Shown piece after piece: positions 58,385 to 58,472 of a stretch of 64,000 bases of DNA. How positions within the stretch are numbered: position 1 is the stretch's first letter; every line of letters starts with the position of its first letter. Below the pieces are notes generated by a model. That model worked only from the letters and a program-made list of their open reading frames with translations, did no database searches and was not told where the DNA came from. The translations under genes and the position numbers were made by a program. This DNA comes from Escherichia coli. GTDB lineage: Bacteria > Pseudomonadota > Gammaproteobacteria > Enterobacterales > Enterobacteriaceae. The stretch lies in assembly GCF_044647545.1 (NCBI RefSeq), contig NZ_CP172818.1; one strand, given 5' to 3'.

Positions 58385-58472
58385 GACTGGCTTGACAAGC
58401 TTTTCCTCCGCTCCGTAAACTCCTTTCAGTGGGAAATTGTGGGGCAAAGTGGGAATAAGGGGTGAGGCTGGC
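58385..58472 (+). promoter_or_regulatory. mra promoter (Pmra) with three direct GTGGG repeats (MraZ operator)
   Basis: TTGACA at about 58391; GTGGGaaattGTGGGgcaaaGTGGGaataa at 58427-58456 with 10-bp periodicity, just upstream of mraZ. Confidence 0.7.

Follow-up and report, generated by a model that had tools for sequence, protein, structure and literature searches.

Characterised MraZ-binding sites

MraZ boxes have been described as direct repeats with GTG(G/T) cores and six spacer nucleotides, three boxes being found in most bacteria and four in some Mycoplasma, and transcription starts inside box 1 (PMC12957436). In cryo-EM structures of MraZ-DNA complexes reported in 2026, the cradle-like SpoVT/AbrB motif of each subunit is inserted in the major groove and residues K13, R15 and R86 touch the box, and EMSA and reporter assays showed that binding and repression are lost stepwise when the boxes are mutated (PMC12957436). 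In Mollicutes, the motif has been given as (AAAGTGKN3)3, a 10-bp unit (PMC5282649). The B. subtilis promoter includes three copies of GTGG[A/T]G, which are needed for repression (bioRxiv 2022.02.09.479790), and in B. cenocepacia the GTG repeats overlap the start site and follow the -10 box, the latter as in E. coli (PMC7761207). The MraZ operator of the E. coli promoter Pmra is cited in a number of publications (PMC8475190, PMC7761207, PMC12957436), and EcoCyc includes MraZ among its curated transcription factors (PMC5210515).

Location of the repeat array in the mra promoter region

The window, which is the whole 64-kb stretch of DNA that was analysed, was found to be a segment of the E. coli chromosome with the gene order ilvIH-cra-mraZ-rsmH-ftsL-ftsI-murE, the same as in K-12. 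The RefSeq annotation of an identical strain lists ilvI, ilvN(H), the fruR leader peptide, cra, mraZ, rsmH, ftsL and ftsI. The features identified are listed in Table 1.

Table 1. Coordinates of features identified in the window
Feature	Coordinates	Strand	Comment
TPP riboswitch upstream of thiB	44828-44927	-	Rfam gathering threshold
SgrS sRNA	47437-47661	+	Rfam gathering threshold
Leucine operon leader	52413-52562	-	Rfam gathering threshold
Pmra -35 hexamer TTGACA	58392-58397	+	Promoter scan; invariant in 79-80 Enterobacteriaceae sequences
Pmra -10 hexamer TAAACT	58416-58421	+	18-nt spacer from -35; invariant across Enterobacteriaceae
MraZ box 1 (DR1) GTGGG	58429-58433	+	Begins around the expected transcription start
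MraZ box 2 (DR2) GTGGG	58439-58443	+	Preceded by conserved TT(T)
MraZ box 3 (DR3) GTGGG	58449-58453	+	Preceded by invariant AAA; fifth G E. coli-specific in the sample
mraZ1p transcription start	58435	+	Derived from the reported 38-nt leader (PMC5089854) and the ATG at 58473
Shine-Dalgarno GAGG of mraZ (probable)	58464-58467	+	5 nt before ATG; highly conserved columns
mraZ	58473-58931	+	152 aa; PF02381 twice, E = 4e-47; RefSeq annotation of identical strain
rsmH (mraW)	58933-59874	+	First downstream gene of the Pmra operon; PF01795, E = 7e-124

A first-pass annotation of this DNA had placed the repeats downstream of a TTGACA -35 element and upstream of mraZ, and this position was borne out. 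The array is on the + strand, starting 8 bp after TAAACT and with box 3 ending 19 bp before the mraZ ATG. It is in the same orientation as mraZ and lies at or after the -10 element of the promoter that heads the dcw cluster, the start site being taken from the literature. The Pmra hexamers match the sigma-70 consensus at 10 of 12 positions in a consensus scan.

A 5' UTR of 38 nt has been reported for mraZ1p (PMC5089854), and the corresponding start falls between boxes 1 and 2, 14 nt after TAAACT, whereas the start predicted from the hexamers alone is at ~58428-58430. As 14 nt is an unusually long distance from TAAACT to +1, there is some imprecision either in the mapping of the start or in the assignment of the hexamers. 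Whichever start is used, the start site and the ~20 bases transcribed first are covered by the boxes.

The protein encoded by mraZ includes the two SpoVT/AbrB-like halves, the DXXXR motifs (D11-S-K13-G-R15 and D87-G-A-G-R91) and the conserved lysine expected of the cognate MraZ. It aligns with PDB chains of the M. genitalium and M. pneumoniae MraZ proteins, DNA complexes among them.

Further features were observed between cra and mraZ. One is a strong hairpin rich in GC, ACGCGCCAGG...CCTGGCGCGT (57887-57916), located 16 nt after the cra stop codon and not followed by a T-run. The fold of the 89-nt segment gave z = -2.0 and a simple terminator scan gave no call; the hairpin could be a REP-like element or the terminator of cra. 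Three blocks located 160-410 bp upstream of mraZ (58183-58225, 58059-58075 and 58280-58310) are nearly invariant in 79 Enterobacteriaceae sequences, though the DNA around them is poorly conserved. Block 58183-58225 overlaps a promoter-like sequence, CTGACA-16-GAAAAT (58211-58238), block 58280-58310 contains the palindrome TAACGTTA, and no Rfam match was found for any of the three.

Elsewhere in the window, the SgrS sRNA, the leucine operon leader and the TPP riboswitch are all expected in this part of the E. coli chromosome. Apart from the motif in the mra promoter region described below, a regular-expression scan for canonical G-quadruplexes (four G3+ tracts separated by short loops) had two hits, at 22686-22713 (+) and 41494-41516 (-). 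A segment of 588 nt (45129-45716) is made up nearly throughout of long homopolymer runs of A or G (A30, A20, G17 and others) and stands in place of 835 nt that in close E. coli genomes include the espY2 gene for a type III secretion system (T3SS) effector and the 3' end of sgrR. The flanks match these genomes at 98-100%, and the segment is more suggestive of corrupted sequence, or of an artefact of sequencing or assembly, than of native DNA.

Sequence and phasing of the repeats

The 30-mer reported in the first-pass annotation, GTGGGAAATTGTGGGGCAAAGTGGGAATAA, is present in the window, at 58429-58458. The coordinates that had been assigned to it, 58427-58456, are off by 2 nt and read CAGTGGG...GGGAAT. 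The sequence surrounding the array reads ...TTGACAAGCTTTTCCTCCGCTCCGTAAACTCCTTTCAGTGGGAAATTGTGGGGCAAAGTGGGAATAAGGGGTGAGGCTGGCATG.... The repeats and their 10-bp periodicity had been correctly recognised, as GTGGG starts at 58429, 58439 and 58449, a period of exactly 10 bp. A fourth in-phase box at 58459 was ruled out, the sequence there being GGGGT rather than GTGG.

The array has the features by which an MraZ operator has been defined, namely at least three GTG(G/T) direct repeats with 10-bp spacing and 6-nt spacers (PMC12957436). A generic repeat finder detected nothing at the array, as the repeat units are shorter than its seed, and a pattern search was used instead. The pattern GTGGG-N5-GTGGG-N5-GTGGG occurs only once in the 64-kb window when both strands are considered, and the relaxed pattern GTG-N7-GTG-N7-GTG revealed no second site. 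The triple did not appear in any of 100 dinucleotide-preserving shuffles of the window, and the number of occurrences expected analytically from base composition is ~2.6e-4.

Conservation in E. coli

Over 101 nt that include the promoter, the boxes and the start codon, the window differs from E. coli K-12 MG1655 by a single SNP, at position 58409 in the spacer between the -35 and -10 hexamers, where the window has C and K-12 MG1655 has A. The bases from the -10 hexamer through the operator and leader to the mraZ start are the same in both, as is the cra-mraZ-rsmH-ftsL-ftsI context.

A 91-nt query covering the promoter and operator matched 5423 of 5426 complete E. coli genomes. At least 99% identity was found in 3508 of the 5423, and the allele carried by the window at 58409 is common to these. 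The cra-mraZ intergenic region of the window likewise has a counterpart in 5423 of the 5426 genomes, and in many of them it is 100% identical.

One genome of the 5423, that of WS3294A (locus L083; accession number NZ_CP035819.1, region 341-345, equivalent to 58427-58431 in the window), has a 5-bp deletion of CAGTG, with loss of box 1 and with boxes 2 and 3 located five bp nearer to the -10 hexamer. The deletion represents either a real operator mutant or an assembly error.

Conservation in the Enterobacteriaceae and in distant relatives

A genome scan with the MraZ protein provided a sample of 80 other Enterobacteriaceae species, and three GTG[GT] boxes with a 10-bp period were found upstream of mraZ in all of them. 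The G, T, G and G of the core are unchanged in each of the 240 boxes, in contrast with the fifth base and the spacers, which vary. TTT precedes box 2 in 79 of the 80 species and AAA precedes box 3 in every one. Box 3 is GTGG[T/C/A] in all 80, and the fifth G that it has in the window (58453) is found in none of these species, which include E. albertii, E. whittamii and two other Escherichia species. As the fifth base varies, the unit is GTGG and not GTGGG, and judged from the aligned sequences the conserved unit is WWWGTGG, with GTGG as its core. The entire stretch from 58390 to 58475 is highly conserved among the Enterobacteriaceae, and close relatives alone therefore fail to single out the boxes.

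In approximately a quarter of the Enterobacteriaceae loci (L055 and other loci of the Buttiauxella/Kluyvera type), an insertion of ~10 bp is present after box 3, for example GGGAATTTAA. The array in these loci is at -52 to -54 from the ATG, compared with -43 to -45 otherwise. The insert, which is located before the Shine-Dalgarno sequence at the equivalent of ~58459 in the window, has a length close to one helical turn and some resemblance to a further repeat unit.

As the best 120 homologous-protein matches were all from Enterobacteriaceae, representatives of 50% identity clusters were taken for a deeper comparison, giving a set of 8 metagenomic loci encoding MraZ with 36-63% identity. In 7 of the 8, an rsmH-like gene (Pfam Methyltransf_5) is next to mraZ and ftsL comes after it; L091 and L092 do not extend far enough for a full view. 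Three or more in-phase GTG cores were found within 200 nt upstream of mraZ in 5 of the 8 loci, compared with a mean of 0.004 loci in shuffled sequences. On the coding strand upstream of the gene, a GTGG-N6-GTGG doublet or more is present in every one of the 8 loci, a count that includes L089, which is cut by the contig end, and L088, in which two doublets are located ~250 nt upstream. The layout in L087 (57% identity), TTGACA...TAAACT followed after 7 nt by GTGG, is the same as in the window. The arrays are at -33 to -255 from the ATG, and promoter-like hexamers adjoin them. The boxes are thus conserved while the spacers drift, both in the Enterobacteriaceae and, as triples or doublets, in the distant loci. 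As GTGG arrays are found upstream of mraZ in distant loci, the phased array travels with mraZ, and the distant loci, unlike the close relatives, do single out the boxes.

Comparison with characterised operators

The array resembles the M. genitalium and M. gallisepticum boxes, (AAAGTGKN3)n, for which the cryo-EM complexes 9qlr, 9qlg and 9sx6 are available, in the GTG(G/T) core, the 10-bp period, the A-rich 5' flank (DR3 in the window is AAAGTGG) and the overlap with the start site. However, there are four boxes in Mycoplasma and three in the window, and the MraZ proteins are only distantly related (E about 1e-11). The oligomers may also differ, an octamer having been reported in Mycoplasma and a dodecamer suggested for E. 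coli.

The MraZ-binding repeats (MBRs) of B. subtilis, three GTGG[A/T]G units with 4-nt spacers, share with the array three GTGG cores with a 10-bp period in Pmra, the triple being unique in the B. subtilis genome and required for repression in that species. However, they have other bases after GTGG, and the main physiological target shown in B. subtilis is ftsL. In the B. cenocepacia promoter PmraBc, GTG repeats are likewise located downstream of the -10 box over the transcription start, in a fragment that was positive in EMSA, but there are four 7-nt repeats with 3-nt spacers and the leader is 100 nt long.

Alternative interpretations of the repeats

The G-tracts could instead function chiefly as a G-quadruplex, formed in the non-template strand or in the 5' UTR, that impedes transcription or translation of mraZ. 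The + strand at about 58431-58463 does include a canonical four-tract G3+N1-7 motif, GGG-N7-GGGG-N6-GGG-N6-GGGG, in which no loop exceeds 7 nt, and its G4Hunter score is 1.55-1.68. In S. aureus, a G-quadruplex downstream of PmraZ, for which such an effect has been proposed, has been characterised and claimed to be conserved (PMC11796246), and it too is a G-rich tract downstream of the mraZ promoter that is partly made of MraZ boxes. However, the E. coli motif, which is predicted from sequence, differs from it in lacking conservation within the Enterobacteriaceae. A four-tract G3+ motif was found in none of the 80 other Enterobacteriaceae species and in none of the 8 distant loci, even with loops of up to 12 nt allowed, and the orthologous promoters thus give no sign that a quadruplex is maintained by selection. 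All 80 species and all 8 distant loci nevertheless keep phased GTGG boxes.

The third G-tract of the motif depends entirely on the fifth G of box 3, which is specific to E. coli in the sample, and it is this G, at 58453, that joins the MraZ boxes and the GGGG adjoining the Shine-Dalgarno sequence into a four-tract motif. Loops of 6-7 nt give weak quadruplexes. As the relatives lack the motif and retain the GTGG phasing, selection acts on the phasing and not on the G-tracts, and it is very improbable that the repeats are principally a quadruplex. A quadruplex present in E. coli only, among the 81 Enterobacteriaceae species sampled, might add a lineage-specific structural control on top of MraZ repression, though we consider this quite unlikely. 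If it did, the structure could compete with MraZ binding in unwound DNA or slow the initiation of translation.

A second possibility is that the repeats form a structured or protein-binding RNA element in the 5' UTR that controls translation of mraZ, rather than a DNA operator. With +1 at 58428-58435, DR2, DR3 and possibly DR1 would be in the leader transcript. However, the leader folds no better than shuffled sequences (z = +0.49; 136 of 200 shuffles fold at least as well) and has no Rfam match at the gathering threshold or at E <= 1. In addition, the distance from the array to the ATG varies widely in the distant relatives, in which the array is adjacent to promoter-like hexamers. An RNA leader element was rejected given that no significant fold and no Rfam match were found, and an RNA function in place of a DNA operator is scarcely credible.

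That the repeats are the target of another dcw regulator such as PdhR, for which weak binding in front of mraZ has been reported (PMC3265435), or a chance G-rich run beside the ribosome-binding site, has next to no probability, as no PdhR box with three or fewer mismatches is present in the cra-mraZ intergenic region and window-wide counts of such boxes are below chance expectation, and as chance is ruled out by the shuffles, the expected number of occurrences and the conservation across 88 loci.

The MraZ operator and its proposed mode of action

The gene that follows the array is mraZ, the operator is identical to that of K-12, and the architecture agrees with that in the literature, in line with the first-pass annotation, which had matched the repeats to the reported MraZ operator of the dcw promoter and had called them a known element. 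The same architecture has been published and the element is already described. We put the probability that the array is the known MraZ autoregulatory operator of Pmra, with the mode of binding and repression set out below, at about 93%.

Binding and repression by MraZ at this operator are taken from the literature. Eraso et al. reportedly found in 2014 that purified E. coli MraZ binds three TGGGN direct repeats with 5-nt spacers located between Pmra and mraZ, and an mraZ-lacZ fusion is said to have been repressed by an excess of MraZ but not by the R15A mutant. The sequence used by Eraso et al. was presumably that of K-12, which is identical to the operator in the window.

With the boxes one helical turn apart, three consecutive major grooves would be exposed on the same face of the helix, in an array reaching from immediately downstream of the -10 hexamer to about +20. 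One MraZ subunit would recognise each box with its two-lobed cradle of the SpoVT/AbrB type, the predicted contacts being K13, R15 and the arginine of the second DXXXR motif (R91 in E. coli), residues that are transferred to E. coli MraZ by analogy with the Mycoplasma protein. Neighbouring subunits of the MraZ oligomer would bind neighbouring boxes cooperatively, and the complex would extend over the discriminator and the start site into the early transcribed region. We infer that repression occurs by steric occlusion, in which occupancy of the start region would block access of RNA polymerase, formation of the open complex or promoter escape. With the start-site region occupied by MraZ, the operon would thus be negatively autoregulated, the feedback acting on mraZ-rsmH-ftsL-ftsI and the genes downstream.

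Descriptions of the operator date back to 2014 and its structural basis is now understood, and the analysis adds no new biology beyond three small points. These are that GTGG, and not GTGGG, is the conserved unit of the boxes, that the G-quadruplex motif is not conserved in relatives of E. coli, and that one E. coli isolate apparently lacks box 1. As transcription of the dcw cluster from its first genes onward (mraZ, rsmH, ftsL, ftsI and beyond) is driven by Pmra, the operator lets MraZ set the levels of essential division proteins.
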